Counted from the stretch's first letter, positions 6,636-40,076 are shown. The stretch is 43,536 nucleotides of DNA from Patescibacteria group bacterium UBA1400 (GCA_002305125.1 DBQG01000001.1:1-43536); one strand, 5' to 3'. Notes: generated by a model not told the origin, from the letters alone. A program made the numbers and translations.

Positions 6636-6703
6636 ACAAGCTATCTAATTTGACCCCATTTGTTATCTTTTCAAGCTTAAAGCTTTCTTGTTATACTTTT
6701 AAT

Positions 6704-7780: not shown

Positions 7781-7781
7781 T

Positions 7782-8501
7782 ATGAATCCTGCCCAAGTTC
7801 CTATTAAAGCCAGCACTCAAGAACATCTAGACCTGGAAGATGTTAAAGATAATGTTGTTATCTTAAAAGATGGGTCGTGCCTGATTGTCTTACAAACCAA
7901 TGCCGTTAACTTTGACCTCTTATCAGAAAATGAACAAGATGCCACTATTTATGCTTATGCTGGTCTTTTAAACTCTCTTTCCTTTCCTATTCAAATTTTT
8001 ATCCGTTCCCGCCAAAAAGATATCTCCTCATATCTCAAACTATTAAAACAGCAAAAACAGAAGCAACAATCAGAAAAATTAAAAGAGCAAATAAGTAAAT
8101 ATCAAGAGTTTGTGGAAAAAATGGTTAAAGAGAATGAGGTTTTAGACAAGAAATTTTATGTTATTATTCCTTTTTCTACTTTTGATCTCGGTGTTTCTCA
8201 AACGGTTAAAAAAAGCGTTATTGGAAAAAAGAACCAACTTCCTTTTCCTAAGGAATATATTTTACAAAAGGCAAAAACAAGCCTGCTTCCCAAAAGGGAT
8301 CACATCATAAAACAATTTACTAGAATTGGTTTAAAAATCTCCCAATTAAACACAAGACAACTTGTAGAACTTTTTTATGATATTTATAATCCAGACTTAA
8401 AGGCTCAAAAATTAAGAGCTGCCGACGAATATTCTAACTTTGTTGTTGAACCAAATATTAAAGATCAAGAAGATAAAAAAGATAAAGAAACCAAGGATTA
8501 A
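7782..8501 (+). CDS. hypothetical protein resembling the N-terminal domain of Gram-positive VirB4/ConE-type ATPases (no ATPase domain)
   Basis: VPIKASTQEHLDLEDVKDNVVILKDGSCLIVLQTNAVNFDLLSENEQDATIYAYAGLLNSLSFPIQIFIRS follows the IP..x..DG..x..INF.L..x.Q..I...LN.L...IQI pattern at the N-termini of Tn916/ICEBs1-type VirB4 proteins. No Walker motifs. Starts 2 nt after the previous stop. Confidence 0.65.
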   Translation: MNPAQVPIKASTQEHLDLEDVKDNVVILKDGSCLIVLQTNAVNFDLLSENEQDATIYAYAGLLNSLSFPIQIFIRSRQKDISSYLKLLKQQKQKQQSEKLKEQISKYQEFVEKMVKENEVLDKKFYVIIPFSTFDLGVSQTVKKSVIGKKNQLPFPKEYILQKAKTSLLPKRDHIIKQFTRIGLKISQLNTRQLVELFYDIYNPDLKAQKLRAADEYSNFVVEPNIKDQEDKKDKETKD

Positions 8502-8507
8502 TTTGTT

Positions 8508-10472
8508 ATGAACTTTATTTCCAATCTTTTACCAACTAAAAAACAAAAACCTTCTACTCAAAAAGAAGAAAAAGTCCTCAAAAATAATGATAAAACCGAG
8601 GTTTCCGGCAATTCTACCGAAGCTAAGGCAGCAATTGAGAGCTTAACAAATGGCCTTACTTCTATTAAAGATGTAATTGCTCCCCCTTCTTTAGAGGTTG
8701 ATTTTTCCCATATTAAAATTAATCAAACCTATTATCGTACTCTATTTGTGGCCGGTTTTCCCCGTTTTGTTAATGCTAACTGGCTGGCCCCACTAATTAA
8801 TTTTGATCATCCTTTAAATATTTCTATGTTTATTTACCCTGTTGAAGTTAAAGAAATTTTAGATGATTTAAAAAGAAAGATTGGAGAAATGGAGGCCGAG
8901 GTTCAAACCGACATTCAAAAAGGTAAAATTATAAATATCGATACTCAGGTTAAACTGGAAGATGCTCATGATCTTCAAAAACAGTTGGCCAAAGGAGCGG
9001 AAAGGTTTTTTCAGTTCGGCCTTTACATTACCATCGCTTCAAGGTCAGAAAAGGAACTTAACAGAATTAGCCAACAAGTACAGTCGGCCCTGGGTTCTGT
9101 TATGATTGTTTCTAAAGTTGCTTCTCTTCAAATGGAAGATGCTTTTAAAACCACTCTTCCCACTTGTACAGATAAACTTATGATTACAAGAAATATGGAT
9201 ACCACCAGCCTTGCCACTACTTTTCCCTTTACTTCCTCAGAATTAACCTCCAATGAAGGAATTTTATACGGGATTAATGAACATAATGACTCTCTGGTTA
9301 TTTTTGATCGCTTCTCTCTTGAAAATGCCAACTCTTTAATTTTAGCCAAAAGCGGTTCGGGAAAAAGCTATTTGGTTAAGCTGGAAATTCTGCGCTCTTT
9401 AATGTTTGACACCGAAGTTATTATTCTTGACCCCGAAGGAGAATATAAAACTCTGTGCGAAACTGTCGGTGGTTCTTATATTGATTTTTCTTTTGATTCC
9501 AGCTCTAAAATAAATCCTTTTGATCTGGCTGCCCGACAAGAAGAGGGCGAAAATGAATTAGGTTTAAAAATACTGTCTCTTCATTCTCTTTTTAAAATTA
9601 TTATGGGAAATCTTACCCCTACCCAAGAAGCAATGTTAGATAGGGCTCTTGTTTTAGCCTACAAACAGAAAGGGATTACTGTTGACCCCAACTCTCAAAC
9701 AAAAGAACCTCCCTTAATGGAAGACTTATATAAAGTATTAATTGGTATGGAGCAAAAAGATGCTTTAGAAATGGCCTCAAGGCTGGAAAAGTTTATAAAG
9801 GGTTCTCTGCGTGGTGTTTTTGACCAATATTCTACCGTTGATATTAAAAACCCCTTTACTGTTTTTTGCATTAAAGAGCTTGAAGACGAACTAAGGCCTA
9901 TTGCTATGTTTATTATTCTTGACTTTATTTGGACTAAGGTTAAAAAAGAATTAAAAAGAAGAATTCTTGTTGTTGATGAGGCGTGGTACTTAATGAAACA
10001 TCAGGATTCTGCTACTTTTCTTTATGGAATTGCTAAAAGGGCCAGAAAATATTATCTTGGTCTAACCACCATTACTCAAGACGTTGAAGATTTTTTAAAT
10101 AGTGATCATGGCAAGGCCATTGTTACCAATAGCTCTTTACAAATTTTAATGAAACAATCTCCTGCTGCTATTGAAACGGTGGGAAAGGTTTTTTATTTAT
10201 CTCAGGGTGAAAAAAATCTACTTTTATCTGCTGAGGTTGGTAGGGGCTTATTTTTTGCCGGTAACAACCATGTGGCTATTAGGGCTGTTTCTTCCGAGGA
10301 TGAACATAAATTAATTACCTCAAAACCTCAGGACATCCTTGCTCAACAAAAAGAGGTTGACATTCAGGCTTCAATTAAAAAAGAGCTTGAAGATAATCTT
10401 TCTCAACAATCTTCCAACCCTCAAGAGACTTTAGAAATGATTCAAAAACAAGAGCAGACTTCTAAAACCTAA
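8508..10472 (+). CDS. VirB4/TrbE/CagE-family type IV secretion ATPase
   Basis: Walker A ILAKSGSGKSYLVK, Walker B RILVVDEAWYLM, and the N-terminal YYRTLFVAGFPRFVNANWLAPLI...ISMFIYP motif typical of the VirB4 N-domain. Sits directly downstream of a PrgI-like gene. Confidence 0.9.
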   Translation: MNFISNLLPTKKQKPSTQKEEKVLKNNDKTEVSGNSTEAKAAIESLTNGLTSIKDVIAPPSLEVDFSHIKINQTYYRTLFVAGFPRFVNANWLAPLINFDHPLNISMFIYPVEVKEILDDLKRKIGEMEAEVQTDIQKGKIINIDTQVKLEDAHDLQKQLAKGAERFFQFGLYITIASRSEKELNRISQQVQSALGSVMIVSKVASLQMEDAFKTTLPTCTDKLMITRNMDTTSLATTFPFTSSELTSNEGILYGINEHNDSLVIFDRFSLENANSLILAKSGSGKSYLVKLEILRSLMFDTEVIILDPEGEYKTLCETVGGSYIDFSFDSSSKINPFDLAARQEEGENELGLKILSLHSLFKIIMGNLTPTQEAMLDRALVLAYKQKGITVDPNSQTKEPPLMEDLYKVLIGMEQKDALEMASRLEKFIKGSLRGVFDQYSTVDIKNPFTVFCIKELEDELRPIAMFIILDFIWTKVKKELKRRILVVDEAWYLMKHQDSATFLYGIAKRARKYYLGLTTITQDVEDFLNSDHGKAIVTNSSLQILMKQSPAAIETVGKVFYLSQGEKNLLLSAEVGRGLFFAGNNHVAIRAVSSEDEHKLITSKPQDILAQQKEVDIQASIKKELEDNLSQQSSNPQETLEMIQKQEQTSKT

Positions 10473-10486
10473 AATCTAAATTATTA

Positions 10487-11602
10487 CTATTCTTTTATTC
10501 TTACTGGCATAATAATGTGAAGAAAAGAATTTTTTCCTGCTGGTTTAAAAACCCCCGGTTTAAGGGGCCCTGACAACTCTATTTGAATTTCTTTGGAATC
10601 AAGAATCCCTAAATACTCTTGTAAGAATCTATAATTAAAGGCTATCTCACAATTTTCCCCCTCTTTTTTAATCTCTAGGCTTGTTTTATTTTCTCCAACC
10701 TCAGGGGCATCTGCTTCAATTTCCAGTTTATTTTCAATAATTTTAAATTTAACAATGTTGGCACTGTCTTTGGCTAAAATAGAGGCTGTCTTAACTGCTT
10801 GTTGTAACTCTTCCCTATCCAAAACAATCTTTGTTTCACAATCTTGAGGAATAATTTTTTCAAAGTCAGGATACTCTCCCTCTAAAAGTCTTGTTATAAT
10901 TTCTGCCCCCTTAACCGCAAAAATTATTTGATTGTCGTCTTTTACCATTTCAATTTCTTCTTTTTCTTCCCCCTGTAAATAAACCCTCACCAATTCCATT
11001 AGGGCTAAGGCGGGAATTATTAGCTTCTCATCTTTTTGTTTGGTCTTTAGGTTAATTGTTTTTAAACTCAATCTATAGCCATCAGTAGATGCCAACCCTA
11101 TACTTTCTCCAAAATTCATTTTAACCCCAGTTAAAATAGGCCGTGATTCGTCCTGTGAGGCTGTAAAAGCCACCTGCTCTATGGCTTTTATTAATTTTTT
11201 AGCTTCAAGGCTTACTTTTTCAAATCCCTCTTTTAGTGTTTCAATGCTGGGAACTGCAGGATATTCTGTGGCAGAAATTCCATTAAAAGAGGCCTTATAA
11301 TTTCTACAGGAAACACTTAACTTATCTTTATTAAGCTCAAATAAAACCTTGTCTGCGGGAAGAGAGGAAATAAAATCCACAATTATTCTGGCGGGAATGG
11401 TTATTTTTCCTTCTTGTTCAACTTTTGCCGGCAATCTTAAATTTATTCCCGTTTCAAGATTGGTTGCTGATAATTTTAAACTTCCTTTTTCTGCAGAAAA
11501 TAAAATATTTTCTAAAATAGGAAGCTGGGGTTTTGATTTAACAAACTTTCCTACAATAGAAAGCCCTTTGTTTAAATTTTCCTGTAAAATTGTTAATTTC
11601 AT
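10487..11602 (-). CDS. dnaN: DNA polymerase III beta sliding clamp
   Basis: 371 aa, MKLTILQENLNKGLSIVGKFV..., three-domain clamp length, directly downstream of dnaA. Confidence 0.95.
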   Translation of the reverse strand: MKLTILQENLNKGLSIVGKFVKSKPQLPILENILFSAEKGSLKLSATNLETGINLRLPAKVEQEGKITIPARIIVDFISSLPADKVLFELNKDKLSVSCRNYKASFNGISATEYPAVPSIETLKEGFEKVSLEAKKLIKAIEQVAFTASQDESRPILTGVKMNFGESIGLASTDGYRLSLKTINLKTKQKDEKLIIPALALMELVRVYLQGEEKEEIEMVKDDNQIIFAVKGAEIITRLLEGEYPDFEKIIPQDCETKIVLDREELQQAVKTASILAKDSANIVKFKIIENKLEIEADAPEVGENKTSLEIKKEGENCEIAFNYRFLQEYLGILDSKEIQIELSGPLKPGVFKPAGKNSFLHIIMPVRIKE

Positions 11603-11847
11603 TTGGTTATAAAAAGTATTTTAAACCCTTTTTTATTCTAGCTTCTATTTTGTTTTTATTCAATTATTAAATTAGTAGTATTAGTAGGGGGTGTTTAAAA
11701 GTGGAAAAATGTCTTATTGAGACGTTGTAAAACGCTGTGGAAAACTTGTTTTGTTTTGTGGAAAAGTTTATAAAAAGTTTATAGTTTTCAACTTTTCCCC
11801 AAACAATAAACAATTTCTCTAAAAGTTTTCCACCTACTTTTCCCCAA
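11603..11847. promoter_or_regulatory. oriC-like DnaA-box cluster plus AT-rich stretch in the dnaA-dnaN spacer
   Basis: DnaA-box variants of TTATCCACA: AGTGGAAAA 11700-11708, TGTGGAAAA 11736-11744, TGTGGAAAA 11757-11765 (reverse complement TTTTCCACA), and TTTTCCACC 11826-11834. A degenerate 12-mer ACTTTTCCCCAA is repeated at 11791-11802 and 11836-11847. An AT-rich run lies at 11610-11690. Confidence 0.6.
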
Positions 11848-13239
11848 CTATTCTTCCCCATATATTCTTTTTTTTAGGGCCTCAATATCAAACCTTAAAG
11901 ACTCAGAGGTGATGCTGTTTTTGCTTATTTTTTCAATAGAGTGCATAACCGTAGTATGATCTCTTCCTCCAAAAATTTCTCCTACCCTCATTAAGGGAAA
12001 ATCAAGCTCGGTTTTAAGCAAATACATGGCAACCTGTCGGGGAAAAACAATCTCCTTATTTCTTTTAGGGCCCTTGATTTGATTAAGTTTAATATTAAAA
12101 TAAGAGCAAACAGCCTCAAGAACCTCTTTAGATTTAACATTTTTTTTAGTTTTAGGTTTTTTGTCAGAAACTTTACCCAAAAGCTTTTGTGCCATTTCTG
12201 GAGTAATGGGTTGGTTGGTTGCGTCTCCTTCGGTAATAATTCTAATTAAAAAACCCTCAAGCTTTCTGGTACTTTCTATATTAGAGGCAATAAGCTGGGC
12301 AACGTCCATAGGGAGAGGTCTTCCCCACTGTCTTGACTTAATAAGTAAAATAGCTGTTCTTAGTTCAAAGTTGGGTTGTTGAATGTCTATGGTTAAACCC
12401 CCCTCAAATCTTGATCTTAACCGGTCTTCTAAACCAACAATTTGGTCAGGAAGCTTGTCGCTGGTTAAAACAATGTGTCCTCCGGCCCGGTGAATTGTGT
12501 TAAAGGTGTGGAAAAATTCTTCCTGAACAGTATTTTTACCACCAATAAACTGAACATCATCAATTAATAAGAGCTTGGCCGAACGGTATTTTTCTCTAAA
12601 AGAAGAAGTGGACTTGGTGCGGATGGCATTAATAATTTCGTTGGTAAACTCTTCGGCAGAGGAATAAACAATTAAAGCCCGAGGGTTTTGATTTATGAGT
12701 TGATGACCAATAGCCTGCATTAAATGGGTTTTTCCCACCCCTACCCCTCCATATAAAAAAAGAAGGTGATAGGATTTGCCGGAGTTTTTAATAACAGACC
12801 TGGCCGCAGCATAAGCAACCTCGTTTGAAGAAGAAACGGCAAAATTTTCAAAAGTAAAGTCAGGCCTAAGACCGGTAAATCTAATAGCTTTTTTAATGGA
12901 TCTTTTGTTTTCTTTTTCATAATTTAAAGACAAAAGGGGAGTTTCAGATTTTTTAGTAGATCCTTTGCCATTTAAAAAATCAGGTTTAACGGTAAATTTA
13001 AGTTCATTTTTAAGCTTGGTTAGGTTATCTAAAATTTCTTTTACTTGTCCCAGATATCTTTCTTCAATTGTATTTTTAGCAAAAGGATTTGCTACAGCCA
13101 CCTCTATAATTTGTCTTTTTTCAGAAACCTTTTTAGTGGTTAAAATTTTAGTGTTGGCAAACCATGAAGAAAAAATTGGTTTAGAAAGATTAAGTTGAAG
13201 TTCTGTTAAGGTTGATTGCCAAAGATCTTTATTATTCAT
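11848..13239 (-). CDS. dnaA: chromosomal replication initiator protein DnaA
   Basis: 463 aa. AAA+ Walker A GGVGVGKTHL, Walker B LLLIDDVQF, and C-terminal DNA-binding helix region ...FGGRDHTTVMHSIEKI. Confidence 0.97.
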   Translation of the reverse strand: MNNKDLWQSTLTELQLNLSKPIFSSWFANTKILTTKKVSEKRQIIEVAVANPFAKNTIEERYLGQVKEILDNLTKLKNELKFTVKPDFLNGKGSTKKSETPLLSLNYEKENKRSIKKAIRFTGLRPDFTFENFAVSSSNEVAYAAARSVIKNSGKSYHLLFLYGGVGVGKTHLMQAIGHQLINQNPRALIVYSSAEEFTNEIINAIRTKSTSSFREKYRSAKLLLIDDVQFIGGKNTVQEEFFHTFNTIHRAGGHIVLTSDKLPDQIVGLEDRLRSRFEGGLTIDIQQPNFELRTAILLIKSRQWGRPLPMDVAQLIASNIESTRKLEGFLIRIITEGDATNQPITPEMAQKLLGKVSDKKPKTKKNVKSKEVLEAVCSYFNIKLNQIKGPKRNKEIVFPRQVAMYLLKTELDFPLMRVGEIFGGRDHTTVMHSIEKISKNSITSESLRFDIEALKKRIYGEE

Positions 13240-13373
13240 AATTCTTTTTAAACAATTAAAAATTGAGGGCAGAGGGTTTTTTAACGCAAGGAAAGCCTTT
13301 TGTTTAACATCTTATTTTTAATAAGTTTTCCACAATTTGTCAACCACAACTTACTATATCAAGTTTAAAAAAA
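13240..13373 (-). promoter_or_regulatory. dnaA upstream region with DnaA box(es)
   Basis: TTTTCCACA at 13326-13334 and the weaker TCAACCACA at 13340-13348, in the 134-nt spacer between the 383-aa gene stop and the dnaA start. Confidence 0.45.
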
Positions 13374-14525
13374 TTAACGGGGAGTCTCTGCGGCCACCTC
13401 ACCAACCTTGGCAGTAGCATCAAAGGCAAAAAACAAGGCCATCAGTAGTTTTGTAAAACCATCACCTCCTTTTTTGCCGAGTTTTAAAATATCTTTCCAG
13501 CTCTTTTTATCTTTGGTTAAACCTAGAGATTTTAAAACCTCATTTTGTACTTCTTCTAAGCTTGCTTCGTCAGACACTCTAATTCCGTGTTGGGATAAGG
13601 CCCTTTTGGCCAAAAGAAGAGCTTTTTGATGTTCTTGAGAAGACAGGGATTCTTGTATTTGCCTAAGCCTCTCTTTTATTTCTTCAGTGTCTAGACCCTC
13701 TTCTTCTTGAGCTTGTTTAAAAAGTGCCTCAAAAGCTTCTTCTTCTCCCTTTTTAATTCCTAAAATATCATGAAGATAAGATCTTTCAGTTGTTACAGCT
13801 TCAGGGGAAGCTGTTGCGGCAGGGGGTTTTTCTTGAGAAGAGCGGACTTCCGGCGGTTTGGTTTTAAAAGAATAAGTCGGTGAAAGTTGCTTTTCCGCCC
13901 TAGAAAGAACAGCCGCTTGTTCTCCGGGGGATAGCTCAGTAAAGTTTTTCGAACTTAAATCATCAGCCTGGGCAGCTATTGTCTGAGCCTCCTGGACAAG
14001 CCTGTTTTCAAAAGTATTATAATCAATAGTTTCTCCTCCCAACTCAACCTGTAAACTATTTTTTAATTTTTTTAAAGCCTCTGTAGCCCTCATTTTTAAG
14101 ACAGGATCTTGGGTTTGATCAGCAACTTCTGTTAAGGCAAAAACATAATCTCCTAAATAAATTGTGCCCGGATGTTGGCCATCAGCCTCGTCAATCCAGC
14201 AAAACTCAACAGCCCCACTTTGATCACCTGCAGCCCTAACATCAGCACCTTCTCTTCCCTGTTTTTTTTGTTCTGCTGCCGTTATTGCTCCGGCTACCCG
14301 GTGAGCCTGCTCTACTAATGGTTCTAAATGAGTTCTAGGAATATTTTGAAAGCGTTCTTGTCCTTGAATATCTCCCAATCTTGAGAAAAGGCCAACTTTT
14401 CCGGTGGGGTTTTCTGGTGATAAAATTGCTGGAACTAAAACCCCTTCCACAGCACTATCAAAAGTACTAACTACTTGTTCTCTGGGAAGAAGTTCTGTCT
14501 GGGGAGGTTTTTGTTCTTCGGACAT
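13374..14525 (-). CDS. 383-aa hypothetical protein with C-terminal hydrophobic tail (orphan cassette gene 1)
   Basis: Track ORF 13374..14747 trimmed to ATG 14525 (MSEEQKPPQTELLPREQ...). The upstream 74 codons are antisense to the start of the 1250-aa gene and look non-coding. E/Q/A-rich, ending ...GFTKLLMALFFAFDATAKVGEVAAETPR. No SD is visible upstream. Confidence 0.6.
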   Translation of the reverse strand: MSEEQKPPQTELLPREQVVSTFDSAVEGVLVPAILSPENPTGKVGLFSRLGDIQGQERFQNIPRTHLEPLVEQAHRVAGAITAAEQKKQGREGADVRAAGDQSGAVEFCWIDEADGQHPGTIYLGDYVFALTEVADQTQDPVLKMRATEALKKLKNSLQVELGGETIDYNTFENRLVQEAQTIAAQADDLSSKNFTELSPGEQAAVLSRAEKQLSPTYSFKTKPPEVRSSQEKPPAATASPEAVTTERSYLHDILGIKKGEEEAFEALFKQAQEEEGLDTEEIKERLRQIQESLSSQEHQKALLLAKRALSQHGIRVSDEASLEEVQNEVLKSLGLTKDKKSWKDILKLGKKGGDGFTKLLMALFFAFDATAKVGEVAAETPR

Positions 14526-14556
14526 TTGATTTAATACTAACTTTTTTTTACTTCTA

Positions 14557-14586
14557 TTGCAAGCAATCTTGTTTATATGATATTCT
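14557..14586 (+). promoter_or_regulatory. candidate sigma70-type promoter for the 1250-aa gene
   Basis: TTGCAA at 14557-14562, an 18-nt spacer, and TATTCT at 14581-14586, followed by the SD AAGAGGA and ATG 14604. Lies in the 78-bp divergent spacer 14526-14603. Confidence 0.3.
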
Positions 14587-14603
14587 GATTTTAAGAGGAA
14601 AAA

Positions 14604-17600
14604 ATGACTGAAACCAGAACAGTAAATCCTTTGACAGTTGCAACTTTTCCCCCAGAAGGAGCCCCTATTGTAAATGAGGGGAATGCTGCTAGTGCCGTTG
14701 TTCACCAATTGAGAAGCGAGGCGGAACAGAGAAGACAGGCATCTCAAAGAGAAGCAGGACCCAGAAGTTTAAAACAAAGATATGAAGAACAAAAGCCTAG
14801 AGAAGAAGGGGTAGCAGCAATTGCCAATAAAGAACAATGCATTCCTGGTAGAAAGTTTAAAAGTCTTGAATTTTTAACCTCAGGGGAAGGAGAGTTTGAG
14901 CTTAGTAAAGAACAGGACAAAAGGCTTTATGATGAGGTAGATAGAGTTTATAGGAACATTCAGCGTCTTTCTCAGGATGATCCGGTGGTAAGAAGATTAA
15001 GACAGGTTTTTGAAAAACAATTTCCGGCACTTAGAGGAAGAGCAGAATTTGTTAAAGGGTTAAGAATTCAAAGAAATGAAAGAATTTTTCATACAGAAGA
15101 AGAGCTAATTACAGCCTTAGTAACCTTAGAACAGCATCAACATTTAGTAGCAGCCTCTTTGGCTTGTGAAATTTCTAACAACGGACAAAGAACAGTTGAG
15201 ATTAATGTTCCTTCCAACACAGAAATAGAAGCAATTATTAGAGACAAAATTCCTAACATTGCAGAAACATCGCTTGGAATTGTGGTGGAATCCTTGAAAG
15301 TGGGAGATTTTGCCGGAGCTTATGCGGCTATTGGAGCTTTAGTAGGATCAGGAGGGGTAGTAGCTACAGAAATTATCAGTAATTTTGTTGGGGCTGCCGG
15401 AGCCGGTGGGCCGGATGTAGCGGTGGCAGCAGCTCTTGCAGGATTGGCAGGAGCAGGTATTGGTTTGGCTATGAAAACTGAGTTTATTGTGGGTCGGAAA
15501 GCGGAAAAAAGCAAGTTAAGAATCAGCTTGCCTAAGTCCGATGCTAGGGTGGTAACAGAATATGGAGCAAACCTTGGAATTTTAAATAAAACTCCTGAAG
15601 AAATTTTAGCAATCATAGAAAGAACTGAAAGAGTTAGGCATGAAGTATGGGCAAGAGCGGGCGTAAATCTAGAATCTTTAGAACAAAGAGCAGCTTTAAA
15701 CCTGGATACTCTCGCCCTTGATCCTACTAAAACAGAAATTACCCAGGGTAAGGGAGATATTATTTATGTTAACAGAAGACAAGAGCATCTTTATAGGCTA
15801 CTGGGAAATGGAGAAAGATCTTTGGCAGACCTAACTGCAGCAGAACAGTTAATGTTTAAACTTGATGCTTCCACGGCTGCTTTATTTCAGGAAAATGGTC
15901 AGATAGCCAGGCAGATAGCAGACGAAGCTGAAGCAAAAAGTACAACGGAAAGACTAAGCGAAGCAGGACAAATAGACAAGTTGGCCTCAGAATATGAGCA
16001 GGGTAAAAGAGGGCTTCAGGTGGTTGATAAGGCTGAGGTTAAAGCTAAGCAGGAAGAGCTGGCAGAGGCAACAGAAAAAGTTTCTCAAATAACAGAACTT
16101 CAGGAAGAACTTCAGGAAGTTGTTGATAAGCTGGCCCCGCTTCAACAAAAGATTGAAACAGCCAAGGCTGCAAGACAGGTTTTAACCCAACACCATGAAA
16201 CAGATTTAGGAACAGGAGAAACAGAAATTCAGCAGCTAGGTAGAGAAATAGGAGAGTTGGAAGATCAGATTATAGGAACAACGGGAATAGATGTTAGTCT
16301 GGCAGATATTAGAAGGAACATAAGAATAAAACAGGCAGAGATGATGAGATTAAAAAGAGAAATAGAAACATTAAAAGAAGAGCAAAGAGGAATTTCTGTC
16401 AAAATTACCAATCCAACAACCGGCGTCAAATATACAGCAGATGAAGTTAAAAATGAGCATGCAAGAATAAGGGGAGAGGTTTCTCTTAAACAGCAAGAGC
16501 ATGATAATTTTAAGACAGAGATAGAAGAGGACGAAGGTGATAAGGAGGCTTTAGAGGAAAGAAAAAAGTTTTTGACTAAAGAAAGACAGGATAGAAAAGA
16601 TAAATTAGACAGAATAAGAGCAGACATTCGTGCAGCTGACACTTTAGTAGCAGAGGCGGAGGCAGAGGGAAATGTAGCTAATTTAAAAGTTCTTGAAACA
16701 GAAAGAGATAGGATTTTAGCTGAGCTGGCTTTAGTAGTTAATCCGGCTGCTCCACCAACTTTAAGCGTTGAAGAAGTTCCTGGTCAAATTAATTTGGCTC
16801 AAAAAGAGCAGGCAAGATTGCAAAAGGAAGCAGAAAAGTTACAGTTGCAGCTTGAAAGATTTGAGGCAGGTCAGGGTAGGGCCAGCCCTCAAGACTTACA
16901 AACAGCTAAAATTTTAAGAAGATCAGCCGAACTGGTAAGACCCGTGAGTCGTGAAGGGAGAGAAGGAAGATTTAATGAAATAAGCGGGGAGCTGGTTTTA
17001 AATGATGAACTAAGAGTGAAGTTAGCTGATCCAAACCTTGGTTATAATGAATGGTTGATGTTAATGTTTGGACCTGATGCTATTGCTCCAGACGAGATGA
17101 GAGTTAATCGTCAGGTGGTTTCCAAAGCAGACATGGTGATGGCTGCCGTTGATGTATGGCGGCTTGATGATGGTTATTTTGGAAGGAATCAGGAAGGAGA
17201 GTTTTTCTTAACAGCAGTAAGAGGAAAGATAAACAGAATTGCTTCTTTGCAAGATCAGATTGCTGAAAGGGAAAGATATCAGAATCCGGGTTGGCAGGCA
17301 GAGATAGAAGCACTTCGAGGACAAATAAAGGCTTTGCGTCAGGAAAACAATCAAGAGTTGGCAGCTTTGTATGATCGTGCAGCTCATTTTTTTAACAGCG
17401 ATCCTTTTAAGGTGAGGGAGTTTTATGCAGAATTGGCAGGAAGGGTAGCTAAAAAAGCCTTAAGAGGAGGAGAGGGAGAAACTTACGAAAGAGCTCAGGT
17501 TAGAATGGGCATTAGAAAAGAATCGAGACAACAAGTAGAAAGTAGGGAGGGTTATGGAGTTTTAGTTTATGAAGGTCCGCGCCAAGTTGAAGGAACTGAA

Positions 17601-18356
17601 GTAAACCACGGTATTTTACGGTTTACCACCCCTCCTGAGCATAAAATTGCTGGAACTGAGGCTAAGATTACTTTAGAAACTTCTTTGCAAAAACCAGCAG
17701 ATAGTGGAGATGCTGATGCTTTACATACCCAAATTTCTCTTCAGTTAACACCAGAGCTATATGAAGCAATGCCAGACACAAGGCCTGCTTTTGATGACTG
17801 GCCTCCTGAGCTTTTAAATGCAGTATATGAAGCAGGAGCAATTGGAACTGCCCGTAAAAAAGAGCTGGCAGAAGTTGGGGGAAAGGTTTTGCAGCTTGAG
17901 ATTGATGCAACCGACTTTGACTCTTTAAGCACACAGCTTGAGGCCTGGAAAAACTTAGGTGATTTGCAAAATTTATATCCTCTTTCAGTAGGAGAGGCAG
18001 CTGTTAATATGTCTCAAGAAATGCAAGAGGCCCTATTTAGCAACAACAGAACTGTTTTAATTACTCTAGGTAGAGGAACTCCCCGGTCTGGCTCTTATTA
18101 TTTAAAAAGGGATCCGGCCACAGGTCAACTTATAGTTAATCTTCAGCGAACAAGAGGGGGTAGGGGAAGAGGAATAATTAATAATATTCCTTTAAAAGAG
18201 TTCGTTTCTAAATATGAAGATCAGTATAAAAGAATAAGACATATTAGGCTTGATCAAGCCTTAACTACAAGACAAAGAAGAGAGATGGAAAGTGAAAAAC
18301 AGGAATTTTTAAAAGAAACAGGAAAAGAAATATTAAGAACCTTGCATCGTTATTAA
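14604..18356 (+). CDS. 1250-aa hypothetical coiled-coil protein with Gly/Ala-zipper membrane segment (orphan cassette gene 2)
   Basis: Uninterrupted ORF with a good SD. Residues ~234-290 (nt ~15303-15473) read GDFAGAYAAIGALVGSGGVVATEIISNFVGAAGAGGPDVAVAAALAGLAGAGIGLAM. Residues ~440-790 are heptad-like and E/K/Q/R-rich. No Walker, HExxH or nuclease motif seen. Confidence 0.85.
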   Translation: MTETRTVNPLTVATFPPEGAPIVNEGNAASAVVHQLRSEAEQRRQASQREAGPRSLKQRYEEQKPREEGVAAIANKEQCIPGRKFKSLEFLTSGEGEFELSKEQDKRLYDEVDRVYRNIQRLSQDDPVVRRLRQVFEKQFPALRGRAEFVKGLRIQRNERIFHTEEELITALVTLEQHQHLVAASLACEISNNGQRTVEINVPSNTEIEAIIRDKIPNIAETSLGIVVESLKVGDFAGAYAAIGALVGSGGVVATEIISNFVGAAGAGGPDVAVAAALAGLAGAGIGLAMKTEFIVGRKAEKSKLRISLPKSDARVVTEYGANLGILNKTPEEILAIIERTERVRHEVWARAGVNLESLEQRAALNLDTLALDPTKTEITQGKGDIIYVNRRQEHLYRLLGNGERSLADLTAAEQLMFKLDASTAALFQENGQIARQIADEAEAKSTTERLSEAGQIDKLASEYEQGKRGLQVVDKAEVKAKQEELAEATEKVSQITELQEELQEVVDKLAPLQQKIETAKAARQVLTQHHETDLGTGETEIQQLGREIGELEDQIIGTTGIDVSLADIRRNIRIKQAEMMRLKREIETLKEEQRGISVKITNPTTGVKYTADEVKNEHARIRGEVSLKQQEHDNFKTEIEEDEGDKEALEERKKFLTKERQDRKDKLDRIRADIRAADTLVAEAEAEGNVANLKVLETERDRILAELALVVNPAAPPTLSVEEVPGQINLAQKEQARLQKEAEKLQLQLERFEAGQGRASPQDLQTAKILRRSAELVRPVSREGREGRFNEISGELVLNDELRVKLADPNLGYNEWLMLMFGPDAIAPDEMRVNRQVVSKADMVMAAVDVWRLDDGYFGRNQEGEFFLTAVRGKINRIASLQDQIAERERYQNPGWQAEIEALRGQIKALRQENNQELAALYDRAAHFFNSDPFKVREFYAELAGRVAKKALRGGEGETYERAQVRMGIRKESRQQVESREGYGVLVYEGPRQVEGTEVNHGILRFTTPPEHKIAGTEAKITLETSLQKPADSGDADALHTQISLQLTPELYEAMPDTRPAFDDWPPELLNAVYEAGAIGTARKKELAEVGGKVLQLEIDATDFDSLSTQLEAWKNLGDLQNLYPLSVGEAAVNMSQEMQEALFSNNRTVLITLGRGTPRSGSYYLKRDPATGQLIVNLQRTRGGRGRGIINNIPLKEFVSKYEDQYKRIRHIRLDQALTTRQRREMESEKQEFLKETGKEILRTLHRY

Positions 18357-18368
18357 AAAGGAGTTTAA

Positions 18369-18725
18369 ATGGCAATAGATTTGGCTAGTTTAATAAAAGT
18401 AGCTCCGTTTGCTCAGGAAGATAAGCAACGTCTTTTAGCAAACCTAGACAAGTTAACAGAAGAACAGCAAGTCAGGCTATCTAATGCTGCCTGGAGCTCT
18501 TTAGCACAGGCTTACTATCTTAAGTTAAAATATGAGTTTGATAAGTTAAATCTTGAGATTCAGGAAGGAAAAAGAGAGTTTAATAAAAAAGATTATGATG
18601 AGCTTAAAGAAAGAGTTTTACAAGAATATCTTAAGAAACTTAAATTTGCTGATAGTCAAGAATCCATGAAAAAGTTAAGGGAAGAACTACAAAAACAGAT
18701 GCAAAAAACCTCAATGACTTCTTAA
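18369..18725 (+). CDS. 118-aa helical hypothetical protein (orphan cassette gene 3)
   Basis: SD AAAGGAG 6 nt upstream of the ATG, 12 nt after the previous stop. All-helical K/E/L-rich sequence with no motif. Confidence 0.7.
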   Translation: MAIDLASLIKVAPFAQEDKQRLLANLDKLTEEQQVRLSNAAWSSLAQAYYLKLKYEFDKLNLEIQEGKREFNKKDYDELKERVLQEYLKKLKFADSQESMKKLREELQKQMQKTSMTS

Positions 18726-18777
18726 ATGTTCTTTAGCATTTCTATTTTTTTTCCTCTTTGTTAAAATAAAATAACTT

Positions 18778-19740
18778 ATGACTAATGAATCATTAGAATT
18801 TTTAGGAGATAGAAGACCTCAAGTATTAAAAGACATTGAAAGACAGGAGCCCTTTACTTTAGACAAAGATGATGAAAGACAAAAAGGGGAAGTTGGGGAA
18901 CTTAGTCAAAGCATTGACAGAATTGAAACAGAAGCAGTAAGACAGGATTTGGTTCAGTTAAATGAACGGCCCCCAAGTTTTCCTATTGCTGAAAATATAA
19001 CACCAGTTGCCCCTCCTGAAAAAAAATCCTGGAAGCAACTGGTTAAGATGGGGGAAGACCCAGAATCAGCAAGGGAATATTTTAATGAAGTTATTTCCTA
19101 CGAAGTAAGCCAGGGAAGGTTGCCGTCATCTTTATCTCAGGAAGTGAGAGATAATATTGACACTTTTGAACCAAATGTTGCGATAAGGGATGTGGTAGTC
19201 AATCTTGCCATTGGTGGTGGGCTTTTTTTAGGAGAGGCAGTTGGTGGTGCTATCTTAGGAAAAGAATTTTTAGGAGATATTATTAAAAATGCAGGAATTA
19301 TTTTAAAACACTATATTCCTTTTCTTCCTCCTTTTTTAACGGGAGGGGCGTTAGCATACCTTCTTCCTATTGACGGCCTTTTAAGAGCTCCTTACTTGGC
19401 TTTTCGCTCGGTTCAGGAAATTACTAAACTTGCTAGGGAAGAGGGGTTTAAAAAAAGCCTGAATTATTTACGTTTTTTTGCAGCTATAAACTTTTTAAAT
19501 CTAACTCCTGTAGGCGGTTGGTTTGCCCCCATGGTTTCTTTTCCCCGAAATCGAGATATGGGTATTACCCTGATTAACCATAAAGTACAAACTTCTAGAG
19601 CGCCCCATTTTATTAAAAACACTGTTAATGAGGGAATTCAATGGTTTTATAAAAGATCTGCAAGAAAACTTGAAGCCAGGCAGCAAGTTAAAAAATCACA
19701 AAAAATTGGTTTAAAACTTCAGCAGCAAGCGGCAGCATAA
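18778..19740 (+). CDS. 320-aa hypothetical membrane protein with Gly-rich hydrophobic segments (orphan cassette gene 4)
   Basis: The acidic N-terminal third is followed by VVVNLAIGGGLFLGEAVGGAILG and IPFLPPFLTGGALAYLLPI (nt ~19192-19377), then a basic tail. No recognisable family. Confidence 0.7.
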   Translation: MTNESLEFLGDRRPQVLKDIERQEPFTLDKDDERQKGEVGELSQSIDRIETEAVRQDLVQLNERPPSFPIAENITPVAPPEKKSWKQLVKMGEDPESAREYFNEVISYEVSQGRLPSSLSQEVRDNIDTFEPNVAIRDVVVNLAIGGGLFLGEAVGGAILGKEFLGDIIKNAGIILKHYIPFLPPFLTGGALAYLLPIDGLLRAPYLAFRSVQEITKLAREEGFKKSLNYLRFFAAINFLNLTPVGGWFAPMVSFPRNRDMGITLINHKVQTSRAPHFIKNTVNEGIQWFYKRSARKLEARQQVKKSQKIGLKLQQQAAA

Positions 19741-19776
19741 TTGTTTTTTTTAATTCTTTTTGTTAAGATAACTATT

Positions 19777-19914
19777 ATGACAAAGAGAACTTATCAGCCA
19801 AAACCTAAAAAACGTAAAAGAACTCATGGTTTTCTTGTTAAGATGAGAACCAAAGATGGCCGTAATGTAATTAAGAGAAGAAGGCAAAAGGGAAGAAAAA
19901 AGCTGACTGTTTAA
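19777..19914 (+). CDS. rpmH: 50S ribosomal protein L34
   Basis: Hand translation gives [45 protein letters not shown]. Too short for the ORF track. Stop lies 1 nt before the rnpA ATG. Confidence 0.95.
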
Positions 19915-21426: not shown

Positions 21427-21883
21427 TCAAGAATTGACTAAAAAAACAATAGAAGAACTTTTAGATCTTCTAGGCATTACTGACGCCAAAGTTTCTATTG
21501 AACCGGAAGACGAAGGTGTTTTTAAAATTGACATTGATTCGGAACATACTGGTGTTTTAATTGGTAGGCAGGGAGAAACAATTGTTAATCTACAGCTGCT
21601 TTTATCTTTAATTATTTACAAAAAATTAGGTGAATGGCAAAGACTGGTAGTTGATGTAGGTGGGTGGAGGCAGCAAAGAGAAGAAAGTTTAAAAAAATTA
21701 GCCCAAAATACAGCTCAAAAAGTAAAACTATCAGGTGAGGAAGTAATTTTAACCAGATTAAGTCCTTTTGAGCGGCGGATTATTCATATGGAGTTATCTG
21801 AAAACCCAGATGTAGTTACCCAGTCTCAAGGTGAAGGGTCTCAAAGAGTTTTGGTTGTTAAGCTCAGGCAAGCCAATGGTTAA
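21410..21883 (+). CDS. jag: Jag/KhpB-like RNA-binding protein (KH + R3H)
   Basis: GVLIGRQGETIVNLQ (KH GXXG) and LSPFERRIIHMEL (R3H). Overlaps the yidC end by 17 nt. Confidence 0.85.
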   Translation: MVTKNNQELTKKTIEELLDLLGITDAKVSIEPEDEGVFKIDIDSEHTGVLIGRQGETIVNLQLLLSLIIYKKLGEWQRLVVDVGGWRQQREESLKKLAQNTAQKVKLSGEEVILTRLSPFERRIIHMELSENPDVVTQSQGEGSQRVLVVKLRQANG

Positions 21884-22393: not shown

Positions 22394-25300
22394 ATGAATA
22401 AAAAAGTAAAACATCAAGTTCAGCATACGCAAGAACTTACTCAGGTTCTTGTGGCTGGAGGAGCTGGTTTTATCGGCAGTTACCTTTGCCAGTTGTTGTT
22501 GGACCAAAACTGTTATGTTTATTGTCTGGATAACTTAAAAACAGGTACAAAGCAAAACATCTCTTCTTTTATTGATAAAGCTAATTTTCAGTTTATTGAT
22601 CATGATCTTACCAAGCCTTTAGATAAATTAAAACTTCCTAAGCTTGATTATGTTTTTCATTTGGCAGGCTTGGATAATCACTTACATAAACAACAAATAT
22701 CTTTACAGACGTTATTAACTAATTCTGAAGGTACTAAAAATATTTTAGATTTAGCCAAAGATAAGAAAAGTAAATTTTTGTTGGGGTCTTCTTTAGCTGT
22801 TTTTGAAGGTATGGTTTCAGCCGATCAGTTAAAACATTATTTTGGCCCCAAAGAAGATAAAGAAAGTTTTTATTCTTTAGCTGAGGCTAAAAGATTTTCC
22901 GAATCTTTGGTTTTTGAATACTTTAAAAACTACAGCCTTGATTGCCGCATTGTTAGACTTTTGGATGTTTATGGACCCAGAATGAACATTGACTCTACCG
23001 GATCTATTCCGGCTCTTTTTAAAAATATTTTAAATAAAGAGCCTTTTGCTGTTCCTCAGGACGGATTAACACCTATTTATCCTACCTTTGTTACCGATGT
23101 TGTATATGGACTTTTAAAAGCTATGTTTAATCAACAAACAGCCGGAAAAATATATACTCTTGCCAACGTTAAAGGAATAACTGTTTTAGATTTTGCCCAC
23201 AAACTAAAAGAACTTGGCGGACATCAAAACGAAATTGTATTTACCGGAAAAGAAATAAAAACTTTATTTAGTAAGGAAGAGATAGTAAAAACTCAAGAAG
23301 AGCTTAATTGGCATCCTCAAATTGATTTAAATCAGGGGATTAAGAAGACTTTTGAGTGGCTAAGGTTGATGGAACCAACGGTTGTTATAAAAGAAGCTTT
23401 TGAGAAAAAAGAACAAACAGAAGAAGTTGAAGTGTTAGAAGAACTTGAAGTAGTGGAAGAAGCAGAGGTTTTAACCAAGCCCTTATTAGAAGAAACAGAG
23501 CCGGAAAAAAAGGTTGACCAAGTGAAGACAGAAACAAAAATAGTAGTAAATAAACCAATAAAAGATCAAAAAACTAACAAAGAAGAAAGGGGTGAAAAAA
23601 GAAGAAGGGAAAGACTGGTAATAAAGTTGGTTAAAAGCATATCTTTTAAAAAAATAGGTTTGTTAAAAATATTGTTGGGATTTTTTACCCTTTCTCTTAT
23701 TACTCTGCTGTTGCCTTTTTTGTTTTTTTACCACAATCTTCAAAACGGGAGTAAGTTTTTAACCGACAGAGAGTATAAGCAGGCAGCTGTTTCCTGGCAA
23801 AAAAGCAAAAAGCTTCTTTTAGGATTTTCTAACATTCTTTCTTTCTTTTCTCCTCAGCAAAGCGAGCAGGTTCTTTCTTTCATAGATTTAGGGATGGAGT
23901 TTTTACAAGCAAAACAGGAAGAGACTTTAGCCAAACAGCATCTTTATAATTTAACCAATATTATTGTTAAGGGAGAAAGAGGAGATGGTTTACATGAAAT
24001 AAGACAGGCAAACCTTTATCTTAATCAAGTCTATCAAAGTTTAAGTTTAATCGAGGGAGAGATAAAGCAGCTCGATTTAGATAAAAAAGAGCCATTTTTC
24101 TTAAAAAACATTAAAGAAGAAATTGTTGTATATGAGAAAGAGGTTCCTAAATTAAGGGAAAAAATTAAATTGACAAGACAGCTTCTTCCTGTTTTGCCCA
24201 ACTTTTTTTCCTTTGAGGGTAAAAAAACCTATTTAGTTTTGATTCAAGATAATTTAGAGTTAAGGCCAACAGGCGGGTTTATTACTGCTTATGGGCTTTT
24301 AACTTTTGAAAAAGGTAAGCTGCTGGATTTTGAAATAAAAAATACCACCAGCATAGATTCAAAACTTAAGGGACAGGTTGAACCACCGGAGATTTTAAAA
24401 CATCATTTAAATCTGGATGGTTGGTATTTAAGAGATGTTAACTGGAGCCCTGACTTTCCTGCTACCAGCTTTCAAGCTCAATGGTTGTTGGAAAAAGAAA
24501 TAGGAGTTAAAACGGACGGGGTTATTGCCTTAAACCTCTATGTTTTACAAGAGCTTTTACAAGTAACAGGGCCAGTTCAACTGTTAAACTATAATGAGGT
24601 TATTACTCCAGATAATTTATTTGCTAAAACAATTCAGTATTTTGAAGTGGACTTTTCTGCCAACAACGTTGAAGTAGATTTTATTTCTCAGCTTACTCAG
24701 TTAATGTTTGAAAAAATTAAACAACTTGATAATGAAGAATGGTTTTTGCTGGCAGAGGGAATCCAGCAGAGCTTAAAACAAAAACAACTACTTCTTTCTT
24801 TTCAGGATCAGATTCTTGATAGAATTGCGGTAGAAAAAGACTGGAATGGTTCTTTAAGAAAACAGGCAAGTGATCTGCCCTCAAATACAGTTGGTGATTA
24901 TTTAATGGTGAACGAAGCTAATCTGGGAATTAATAAAGTTAACTACTTTTTAAAAAGAAATCTACAGCACGAGGTAACAATTTTGGACAATGGAGATCTG
25001 CTTGAAAGCCTAACTTTGATTTACCAAAATCAAAGCACTTCTAAGGGTTGGCCTGCGGGCGATTACCGTAACTATTTAAGAACCTATATTCCTTTAAACA
25101 GCAGGTTGGTCAATATTAAAACTGGAAGTAGTTTGAACAGTTTGATAGAAGTTTCCGAAGATAAAATAGAAATTAATGAAATCTTTGGAAAAAGCGAGTT
25201 GGGTTTTTTGTTGGAAGTACCGGCCCAACAAACAAGAATTGTTAAAATTACCTATCAACCTCCTTATAAACTTACTTTTAACAAGGGGCAAGCATCTTAT

Positions 25301-25480
25301 CTTTTTTATTGGCAAAAGCAGCCGGGATGGGGGGCTGAACCGGTTCAGTTGAAAATTAATATAGCTTCAAATATAAAACCCTTAAGAATTGCTCCGACAG
25401 CTAAAGTTAACGGTTCGCAAATTAACTTTACCGGCGATACTACTAGTGATAATTTTTATGTGGTTGATTTTATAAATTAA
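22394..25480 (+). CDS. fusion protein: N-terminal extended-SDR NAD-dependent sugar epimerase/dehydratase-like domain, acidic linker, TM helix, C-terminal DUF4012 domain
   Basis: Rossmann motif VLVAGGAGFIGSYLC at the N-terminus. E/V-rich linker, then TM helix LLKILLGFFTLSLITLLLPFLFF. YLVLIQDNLELRPTGGFITAYGLL is the hallmark DUF4012 motif. Confidence 0.85.
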   Translation: MNKKVKHQVQHTQELTQVLVAGGAGFIGSYLCQLLLDQNCYVYCLDNLKTGTKQNISSFIDKANFQFIDHDLTKPLDKLKLPKLDYVFHLAGLDNHLHKQQISLQTLLTNSEGTKNILDLAKDKKSKFLLGSSLAVFEGMVSADQLKHYFGPKEDKESFYSLAEAKRFSESLVFEYFKNYSLDCRIVRLLDVYGPRMNIDSTGSIPALFKNILNKEPFAVPQDGLTPIYPTFVTDVVYGLLKAMFNQQTAGKIYTLANVKGITVLDFAHKLKELGGHQNEIVFTGKEIKTLFSKEEIVKTQEELNWHPQIDLNQGIKKTFEWLRLMEPTVVIKEAFEKKEQTEEVEVLEELEVVEEAEVLTKPLLEETEPEKKVDQVKTETKIVVNKPIKDQKTNKEERGEKRRRERLVIKLVKSISFKKIGLLKILLGFFTLSLITLLLPFLFFYHNLQNGSKFLTDREYKQAAVSWQKSKKLLLGFSNILSFFSPQQSEQVLSFIDLGMEFLQAKQEETLAKQHLYNLTNIIVKGERGDGLHEIRQANLYLNQVYQSLSLIEGEIKQLDLDKKEPFFLKNIKEEIVVYEKEVPKLREKIKLTRQLLPVLPNFFSFEGKKTYLVLIQDNLELRPTGGFITAYGLLTFEKGKLLDFEIKNTTSIDSKLKGQVEPPEILKHHLNLDGWYLRDVNWSPDFPATSFQAQWLLEKEIGVKTDGVIALNLYVLQELLQVTGPVQLLNYNEVITPDNLFAKTIQYFEVDFSANNVEVDFISQLTQLMFEKIKQLDNEEWFLLAEGIQQSLKQKQLLLSFQDQILDRIAVEKDWNGSLRKQASDLPSNTVGDYLMVNEANLGINKVNYFLKRNLQHEVTILDNGDLLESLTLIYQNQSTSKGWPAGDYRNYLRTYIPLNSRLVNIKTGSSLNSLIEVSEDKIEINEIFGKSELGFLLEVPAQQTRIVKITYQPPYKLTFNKGQASYLFYWQKQPGWGAEPVQLKINIASNIKPLRIAPTAKVNGSQINFTGDTTSDNFYVVDFIN

Positions 25481-38754: not shown

Positions 38755-38791
38755 TTCTTAAAAGAAAAAACTTGAATTTAAAGGAGGAGTT

Positions 38792-40060: not shown

Positions 40061-40076
40061 CCCTTAAAGGAGTTAT

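Follow-up and report, generated by a model that had tools for sequence, protein, structure and literature searches.

Four genes between dnaA and rpmH

We analyzed a 43,536-nucleotide stretch of DNA from Patescibacteria group bacterium UBA1400 (GCA_002305125.1, DBQG01000001.1:1-43536; hereafter, the window) in which four genes that we could assign to no known protein family lie between dnaA and rpmH. In the list of open reading frames (ORFs) these are gene A (minus strand, 13374-14525; 383 amino acids [aa] from an ATG start codon; product, p383), gene B (plus strand, 14604-18356; 1250 aa; p1250), gene C (plus strand, 18369-18725; 118 aa; p118), and p320 (plus strand, 18778-19740; 320 aa). Gene A runs toward dnaA and is divergent from B, with a 78-bp intergenic region (14526-14603) between the two start codons. 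Pfam identifies the listed ORFs on both flanks as DnaN (10487-11602) and DnaA (11848-13239) on the minus strand and, on the plus strand, L34 (rpmH, 19774-19914) followed by RnpA, YidD, YidC, Jag, and RNase H (rnhA). The dnaN-dnaA block and the rpmH-rnpA-yidD-yidC-jag block are both intact, and 6534 bp separate the start codons of dnaA and rpmH. A first-pass annotation of this sequence had described the locus as a four-gene orphan cassette, with a control region of its own in the 78-bp gap, set between two otherwise intact blocks. The ORFs, the 78-bp spacing, and the separation of the flanking blocks all proved correct; as detailed below, our reading departs from that description over the unity of the cassette, its orphan status, and its origin.

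Genes A, B, and C form a rare conserved module

An exhaustive HMMER search of 1.84 billion representative proteins, with residues 1-1200 of p1250 as the query, recovered a small family for gene B, comprising 18 proteins at E ≤ 0.001, 13 at E ≤ 1e-10 (p1250 itself included), and 8 at E ≤ 1e-30. The relatives (P0007-P0018) have E values from 3e-135 to 1e-14, and those of full length span 1134-1411 aa at 21-35% identity to p1250, while the fragment P0013 covers only the C-terminal domain. Word-indexed homologue searches with p1250 returned nothing beyond the query itself, a misleading result, since the exhaustive search found a family.

Nine module loci besides the window were compared; the contigs of L083 and L090 stop short on the upstream side, and that of L094 does so on both sides. 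A homologue of gene C (116-138 aa, 35-56% identity to p118) directly follows B in eight of the nine (L081, L083, L084, L086/L087, L088, L090, L091, and L093); the remaining contig, L094, ends within 25 bp of B, so that only B and a stub of the divergent gene are visible. The Joint Genome Institute (JGI) contig that encodes P0010 likewise carries a 128-aa gene directly after B. A divergent gene of 423-661 aa lies upstream of B in every locus where that side can be seen (L081, L084, L086, L088, L091, and L093), and its products end, like p383, in a short hydrophobic helix and a polar tail. The window shows the same arrangement: B, then C directly, and a divergent upstream gene whose product has a C-terminal hydrophobic helix. 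Gene order and sequence conservation thus show directly that the conserved core is a divergent pair, A on one strand and B-C on the other, and that it is a rare module of a small clade within the ultra-small Patescibacteria. A scan of metagenome contigs with the C alignment added only a contig identical to L084.

The fourth gene is not part of this core, and the four-gene unit of the first-pass annotation does not survive the comparison. No counterpart of p320 occurs in the nine other module loci or in 80 dnaA loci from other genomes, and among 5.8 billion clusters p320 matches only itself. This additional membrane protein is confined to the present genome and lies outside the conserved module. 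The term orphan can therefore be kept for p320 alone; p1250 and p118 are members of small families.

We also asked how far these ORFs can be trusted as genes. A survey of Shine-Dalgarno sites found an AAGAGGA sequence of that type before B and a strong site ahead of C, and none for p320 or p383. Those last two, which also lack detectable relatives, are what one would point to in arguing that part or all of the set is not genic and consists of open frames that arose by chance in purine-rich DNA. Most bona fide genes of the window lack a Shine-Dalgarno site as well, however, and chance would hardly yield frames as long as 1250, 383, and 320 codons at 36-41% GC. GC content declines from the first to the second to the third codon position (GC1>GC2>GC3) in all four genes, as it does in known genes, and the protein-level conservation of B and C across ten loci effectively refutes the idea for those two. 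Chance origin is accordingly so improbable that we give it almost no weight. Gene A has a longer alternative reading of 457 aa from a TTG codon; the 383-aa product is matched exactly in a public protein collection.

The dnaA-rpmH junction and the likely origin

The first-pass annotation had also called the spacing at this junction unusual, and comparison bears this out. Of the 80 dnaA loci from other genomes, 52 have a divergent rpmH upstream of dnaA, at a distance of 97-5450 bp (median, 486 bp). The closest DnaA relative, encoded in L001, is 58% identical to that of the window; there, dnaA and rpmH are 221 bp apart, and all four genes are missing. Downstream, L001 retains the order of the window, rpmH-rnpA-yidD-yidC-jag and then rnhA-DUF4012-L25, and differs from it in having two membrane-protein genes between jag and rnhA. 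Because the nearest dnaA relatives lack the module, we regard its lineage specificity as supported.

A small YidC, a DUF4012 protein, low GC, and the cluster of VirB4, PrgI, and CHAP genes all point to a Patescibacterium. The lineage itself is poorly sampled, because the DnaA and YidC proteins of the window are both singletons when clustered at 90% identity. After L001, the best DnaA matches include genomes of Amesbacteria and Paceibacteria alongside Chloroflexota. L001 (CAZZNI010000001.1) is titled "uncultured Gammaproteobacteria," yet its small YidC, its DUF4012 protein, and its synteny are of the Patescibacteria type, and the record is probably mislabeled.

The 245-bp spacer between dnaA and dnaN (11603-11847) contains four TTTTCCAC[ACT] DnaA-box-like sites and an AT-rich stretch. 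Sixteen sites occur in the window when the box is relaxed, four of them in this spacer, and a further DnaA box lies upstream of dnaA at 13326-13334, about 40 bp before the four-gene block begins. The cumulative GC skew reaches its minimum at about 11-14 kb. Since the box cluster and the turn in the skew coincide, we place the origin of replication at dnaA, with the dnaA-dnaN spacer as the likely oriC on these sequence features.

Gene order around the origin is shuffled among Patescibacteria. The position of virB4, for example, varies from upstream of dnaA in L004, L006, and L013 to between rnhA and DUF4012 in L008. Rearrangement within this origin-proximal neighborhood best accounts for the placement of A and B-C between dnaA and rpmH.

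Composition and mobility

A rival explanation holds that the 6.4 kb between dnaA and rpmH came recently from outside, as a foreign or mobile cassette (an island, a prophage remnant, or a defense system) that entered the dnaA-rpmH spacer. The junction is normally short and the closest dnaA relatives lack the cassette, as this explanation would have it, and the overall GC content of the four genes (0.40-0.42) is a little above that of their neighbors (about 0.33-0.37). The excess sits in codon positions 1 and 2, however, and so reflects proteins rich in A, E, R, and G; at third positions (GC3) the four genes range from 0.255 to 0.269, within a host background of 0.21-0.38 for the other genes of the window. 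Codon choice does show one peculiarity that could be counted for acquisition: in four-fold families, unlike the rest of the window, the four genes use codons that end in A more than those that end in C (GCA, 0.38 versus 0.16; ACA, 0.41 versus 0.21; GGA, 0.52 versus 0.36).

Toxin-antitoxin pairs (HTH/Gp49, HicAB, DUF433/PIN, and HepT/MNT) lie directly beside the module in L083 (4185-4819), L090 (3919-4384), L091 (14525-15119), and L093 (517-1354), and they too can be cited for a mobile cassette. Signs of mobility are otherwise missing from the places where we looked. Pfam and NCBIfam detect no integrase, transposase, or recombinase domain in the four proteins, scans of the window for tRNA genes and Rfam families were empty, flanking direct or inverted repeats amount to short chance-level matches, and neither tblastn against plasmids and phages nor an IMG/VR scan with the C alignment matched the module. 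PHROGs and PADLOC return only coiled-coil noise, and the relatives of the module sit in Patescibacterial chromosomal contexts with the same neighbors. We rejected a genomic island or integrative element on the same grounds (no recombinase, no tRNA, no repeats beyond chance, host-like GC3), and an anti-phage defense system as well, given that the four proteins satisfy no PADLOC model.

Host-like GC3, the lack of a tRNA, integrase, or repeat, and the lack of a plasmid, phage, or IMG/VR match all fail to support recent acquisition, which we consider very unlikely. The first-pass annotation had offered acquisition or lineage-specific innovation; of these, lineage specificity is supported. Neither description, an isolated orphan or a mobile insertion, fits the module.

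Architecture of the B family

The B family alignment (A1) begins with a variable N-terminus, which gives way to a conserved helical N-domain (ERIFH..EELI.AL, TN.G). A Gly/Ala-rich, moderately hydrophobic stretch with a central Pro follows at residues 235-296 (15306-15491, plus strand), as located by hydropathy and the family alignment, and it is kept across the family (alignment columns about 350-440). We predict from its sequence that this stretch forms a two-helix membrane hairpin. The segment after it is K/R-rich, the family conserves motifs there (GR.G...RV.T.Y, GLDL, DP..N), and a small alpha/beta segment precedes the coiled-coil middle. This middle, the most variable part of the family, is a rod of about 350 residues, where AlphaFold2 (AF2) places long helices with short breaks at residues about 412-778 (15837-16937, plus strand). 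The protein closes with a conserved helical plus beta-rich domain at residues about 790-1250 (16971-18353, plus strand), which bears the motifs YD.WL.L.FG, LSKAD.V.AA, DRL..KAL..DPF, and HG....TP. The extreme end is conserved as well, reading G..AL..LQRY in the family and ILRTLHRY in the window protein. Purines are strongly in excess on the coding strand of B, where the GC skew is +0.31 and the AT skew +0.33 at 16-17 kb.

The quality of the structural models depended on the input alignment. From a single sequence, the C-terminal part of B was modeled at a predicted local distance difference test score (pLDDT) of 39.7, which is unusable, while the 13-sequence alignment gave residues 51-1250 a mean pLDDT of 71.6 and a predicted template modeling score (pTM) of 0.35. 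The C-terminal half is the best-predicted part, with block-mean pLDDT mostly at about 80-90 and short low dips, and within it an alpha/beta region comes after a beta-rich segment at about 978-1047.

No member of the family contains a Pfam domain, and a profile search of PDB sequences with the family returned coiled-coil noise. Searches of Pfam, NCBIfam, PHROGs, and PADLOC with p1250 itself produced only sub-threshold coiled-coil matches. Foldseek searches of the PDB and BFVD with the full-length model found only coiled-coil look-alikes, all at E ≥ 1e-3 and a template modeling (TM) score of ≤0.13, with condensin, MukB, and Smc5/6 at the top.

These look-alikes merit discussion, as the SMC/Rad50/SbcC/MukB group provides the best, if weak, matches to B through its coiled-coil arms (NCBIfam ASRP, E 0.0018; an SbcC-like PHROG, E 2e-5); keratin, SMC, and Rad50 likewise appear among the matches that involve the rod of B only as coiled coil. 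As in SMC-type ATPases, a long helical rod in B is flanked on each side by a conserved globular region. An antiparallel arm of the SMC kind would require a packing of the predicted helices at about 412-778 that a pTM of 0.35 does not fix. Unlike those ATPases, B has a predicted hydrophobic hairpin. We rejected an SMC/Rad50/SbcC ATPase identity, since the Walker A motif [AG]xxxxGK[ST] is absent from all 13 family members and no SMC_N, AAA_23, or Rad50 Pfam match exists. A string of the form HExxH occurs in one member only, P0010, and is not conserved.

Two further resemblances were weighed. At ~1200 aa, helical, and with Gly-rich hydrophobic segments, B resembles phage tail tape-measure proteins, a few models of which are among its weak BFVD matches (E 0.03-0.06). 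Such an identity was rejected on the absence of a PHROGs tape-measure match, of tail, capsid, or other phage genes nearby, and of any phage or IMG/VR match. Scaffolds of the EzrA and DivIVA/Scy/FilP types share with B a non-enzymatic character, long helices, and, by prediction, membrane attachment. They differ from it in that no homology exists, in that the anchor of B is an internal hairpin rather than an N-terminal helix, and in that the distribution of B is extremely narrow rather than phylum-wide.

Genes A and C and p320

Gene C encodes a small helical protein, the most conserved member of the module, with 21 invariant columns in its alignment (A3) and a near balance of charge in p118 (22 K+R, 20 D+E). 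The C family has no Pfam or PDB relative, and a profile search of solved structures with it was empty.

Gene A presents the opposite case. Its product p383 is acidic and helical, with a hydrophobic stretch by hydropathy at residues 360-379, near the C terminus. A word-indexed search with p383 returned only the protein itself, and matches in Pfam, NCBIfam, and the PDB sequences were at chance, such that we know of no family for it; weak similarity to the upstream protein of L081 (E 0.002) is the closest approach. The A proteins of L084, L093, and L091 are mutually related (E 1e-6 to 1e-10). Because hhalign does not link the two groups, A is treated here as a fast-diverging positional analogue and not as a proven family.

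The genome-specific p320 has Gly-rich hydrophobic stretches at residues 133-161 and 180-198 by hydropathy. It shares with p383 a 13-residue motif, KKSWK(D/Q)(I/L)(L/V)K(L/M)G, at residues 81-93 (19018-19056) of p320 and residues 339-351 (13470-13508) of p383, which on sequence may be either a chance match or the trace of a partial duplication. Compared with one another, the four proteins have nothing in common beyond this motif and coiled-coil similarity.

Beyond the results for B given above, NCBIfam, Pfam, and PHROGs gave nothing above chance with p383, p118, or p320, PDB sequence searches with the four proteins were empty or at chance level, and the sole PADLOC match, of p118 to a type I methyltransferase model, was at chance level (E 0.007, 12.8 bits). 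The first-pass annotation, working by eye, had found no known family, no catalytic motif, and a helical character with a hydrophobic tail in the 383-aa protein, a Gly/Ala block followed by coiled coil in the 1250-aa protein, and two hydrophobic segments in the 320-aa protein. These statements agree with our results: Pfam, NCBIfam, PHROGs, PADLOC, and the PDB place none of the four, no motif or profile test points to an enzyme among them, the profile and Foldseek searches gave no confident homology to known families (those of the divisome and chromosome segregation included), and the hydrophobic and helical segments lie where hydropathy and AF2 now put them. Its further description of a membrane-anchored, pore-like structural assembly is reasonable as regards membrane anchoring, the proteins being helical and three of them having hydrophobic segments; nothing specific points to a pore.

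Linkage to type IV secretion

Beside dnaN, on the plus strand, the window carries a set of type IV secretion genes (2755-10472) encoding a 1129-aa CHAP-domain protein, a 164-aa protein, PrgI (VirB3-like), a TrsD/TraC-like protein of 239 aa, and VirB4, with Pfam recognizing CHAP, PrgI, and, in VirB4, the TraG P-loop. No Pfam profile of a secretion component matches A, B, C, p320, or two additional genes at the start of the window, M and R. Gene M (2052-2765, plus strand) encodes a polytopic membrane protein with an HExxH sequence (IHELSH), and a profile search of solved structures with it found nothing. An 11-nt overlap between M and the start of the CHAP-domain gene makes it probable that M opens the secretion operon. 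Gene R, of which the window start leaves only the 5' part (1-1650, minus strand), is divergent from M and encodes a large E/R-rich protein with no Pfam domain.

Both genes tie the secretion locus to the module in other genomes. Counterparts of M at 37-45% identity adjoin A in L084, L088, and L091, lie close to it in L093, and are found downstream of C in L083; R has 35% identity over 570 aa to a 973-aa protein that adjoins A in L081. Since none of the 80 dnaA loci has M or R, even where PrgI-TrsD-VirB4 is present, we assign them to the module-bearing lineage and not to the secretion system generally.

The gene order of L084 and L091 is identical: VirB4, TrsD, and PrgI point one way, ClpB the other, M and A the first way again, and B and C diverge from A. 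Identity between the window and these two loci (L084 and L091, respectively) is 67 and 66% for VirB4, 54 and 52% for TrsD, 41 and 36% for PrgI, and 27 and 21% for B. L084 continues with rnhA-DUF4012-L25, the block found after jag in the window. In the window, A lies 2.9 kb from the end of virB4 and is three genes from it, and in L084 and L091 A and B are five to six genes from virB4; the literature takes a span of 20 genes as near to virB4. The linkage is thus a direct observation: in all three loci with enough context (the window, L084, and L091), the module lies <12 kb from VirB4/TrsD/PrgI, while the surrounding housekeeping genes differ. The co-occurrence with VirB4 and PrgI that the first-pass annotation had proposed as a check is therefore positive. 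The ClpB-type AAA+ gene between PrgI and the M-A/B-C genes (L084, 3661-7500; L091, 4232-7069) has no counterpart in the window; the version in L084, of 1279 aa, is longer than usual.

Comparable neighborhoods have been described. Type IV secretion clusters of Patescibacteria (VirB4, PrgI/VirB3, and TrsD) commonly lie near dnaA, dnaN, rpmH, and rnpA, according to the survey of Quinonero-Coronel et al. (2025; PMC12102498). The window shares with the MPF-FATA-like neighborhood of that study VirB4-TrsD-PrgI beside dnaN/dnaA, as well as rpmH/rnpA; the parts of the study consulted here contain no mention of A, B, C, M, or R. The described secretion system is widespread in the phylum, whereas A, B, C, M, and R occur in a handful of genomes only.

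A coiled-coil scaffold unrelated to secretion, serving cell shape, division, the envelope, or the attachment of the origin at the membrane, would account for several of these observations, its position reflecting inherited gene order. B combines a long rod and a membrane anchor in the manner of the coiled-coil-rich scaffolds of bacteria, it lacks enzymatic motifs, the module adjoins dnaA and the DnaA-box cluster, and the origin neighborhood of Patescibacteria mixes housekeeping and secretion genes (PMC12102498). The module is too rare for a core cellular role, however, at about 13 representatives in 1.84 billion; the nearest dnaA relatives lack it; it bears no similarity to known divisome or segregation families; and in L084 and L091 it lies away from dnaA/rpmH yet still beside secretion genes. 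A scaffold of this kind is, in our estimation, quite unlikely.

Other features of the window

Three features lie outside the subjects treated above. The rnhA ORF as called starts at a GTG codon and overlaps jag by 53 nt (21831-21883), and its Pfam match begins at residue 21, such that the true start may lie downstream of that GTG. The gene at 22394-25480 joins an NAD-dependent epimerase domain and a DUF4012 protein into one product of 1028 aa; the counterpart in L084 is 784 aa long, with only a DUF4012 match on record. The genes at 37792-41264 (glpX, pgk, and one for a class II aldolase) stand out from most others in the window by their higher GC content (0.39-0.44) and strong Shine-Dalgarno sites.

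A proposed membrane-anchored accessory module

The explanation that we favor, at about an even chance of being correct on the present sequence evidence, is that A, B, and C constitute a lineage-restricted, membrane-anchored coiled-coil module that is accessory to the Patescibacterial type IV secretion neighborhood at the origin. Membrane topology, complex formation, and the working link to secretion are the steps that we infer, as follows. A, B, and C appear to lack a signal peptide, judged by reading the N-termini and not by a predictor. The hairpin of B would insert in the cytoplasmic membrane and leave both large domains in the cytoplasm, an inside-facing topology suggested by the moderate hydrophobicity, the apparent lack of a signal peptide, and the K/R richness of the sequence that follows the hairpin. 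A would be tail-anchored at the same membrane through its C-terminal helix, C would bind B, and the resulting assembly would act as an accessory non-enzymatic scaffold that works with the secretion machine for host contact. Rearrangement of the origin-proximal neighborhood would have left A and B-C between dnaA and rpmH in this genome.

Several observations weigh against this scenario. The secretion linkage rests on three loci, the contigs of the other module loci being only 3-9 kb long, and gene order in small genomes can persist passively. In the window, dnaN-dnaA stands between the module and the secretion genes. M and R are not beside VirB4 in the other Patescibacteria examined, which argues against a general machine part, and the toxin-antitoxin flanks of four loci could point to a variable or defense-type region. 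The membrane anchor is itself uncertain: AF2 confidence is low in the hydrophobic block of B, the hydrophobic segments are only moderate (Kyte-Doolittle, 1.3-2.05), and the pTM of 0.35 makes the overall fold-back of B unreliable. Lastly, hhalign gives a probability of only 0.7% for the p383 group against the other A proteins, so a single A family is not supported.

The same linkage to type IV secretion speaks equally for a different role, in which B, and perhaps A and R, would be type IV secretion substrates that insert in the host membrane, with C as a dedicated chaperone or adaptor. Chlamydial Inc proteins and other transmembrane effectors combine a two-lobed hydrophobic domain and a coiled coil and are paired with small chaperones; Inc proteins are substrates of type III, not type IV, secretion. 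By analogy, the ~60-residue, two-lobed, moderately hydrophobic segment and coiled coil of B, the small conserved gene downstream, and the secretion linkage would fit such a pattern, tempered by the lack of any sequence or fold relationship and by the size of B, which is several times larger than a typical Inc. The fixed position of the small, highly conserved C right after the large, faster-evolving B fits as well, as do the conserved extreme C terminus of B (...LQRY), located where type IV secretion signals usually sit, the very fast divergence of A, which host-interaction proteins often show, and the lack of an evident signal peptide on reading the N-termini. Against these points, Pfam finds no coupling protein VirD4 in the window; C is predicted to be all-helical and is not markedly acidic, unlike classical secretion chaperones; and B is conserved along its full length, both terminal domains included, which fits a structural protein equally. 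We rate a substrate role as unlikely.

A bolder proposal would join A, B, and C to M and R as an undescribed membrane-anchored coiled-coil apparatus of the secretion system, either as a lineage-specific replacement for VirB6/VirB8-like parts of the inner-membrane platform or as giant membrane-inserting substrates with a small partner for host attachment or manipulation. We assign this proposal a low probability. VirB6 and VirB8 homologues are scarce in Microgenomatia, and secretion genes of Patescibacteria were required for the host-dependent lifestyle in the one lineage tested, the former as described and the latter as cited in PMC12102498.

The finding as a whole is moderately, not highly, surprising, as the family is tiny and uncharacterized proteins are common in these genomes. 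Two points of wider bearing emerge from it. A protein that appeared to be an orphan at k-mer-filtered sensitivity gained a family once every protein was scored, and shuffling in the origin-proximal neighborhood accounts better for what seemed to be an insertion at an invariant junction. Up to five protein families without current annotation are defined by this analysis. Patescibacteria depend on hosts, and their secretion substrates and much of their membrane machinery are little known; the module provides concrete candidates for either role.

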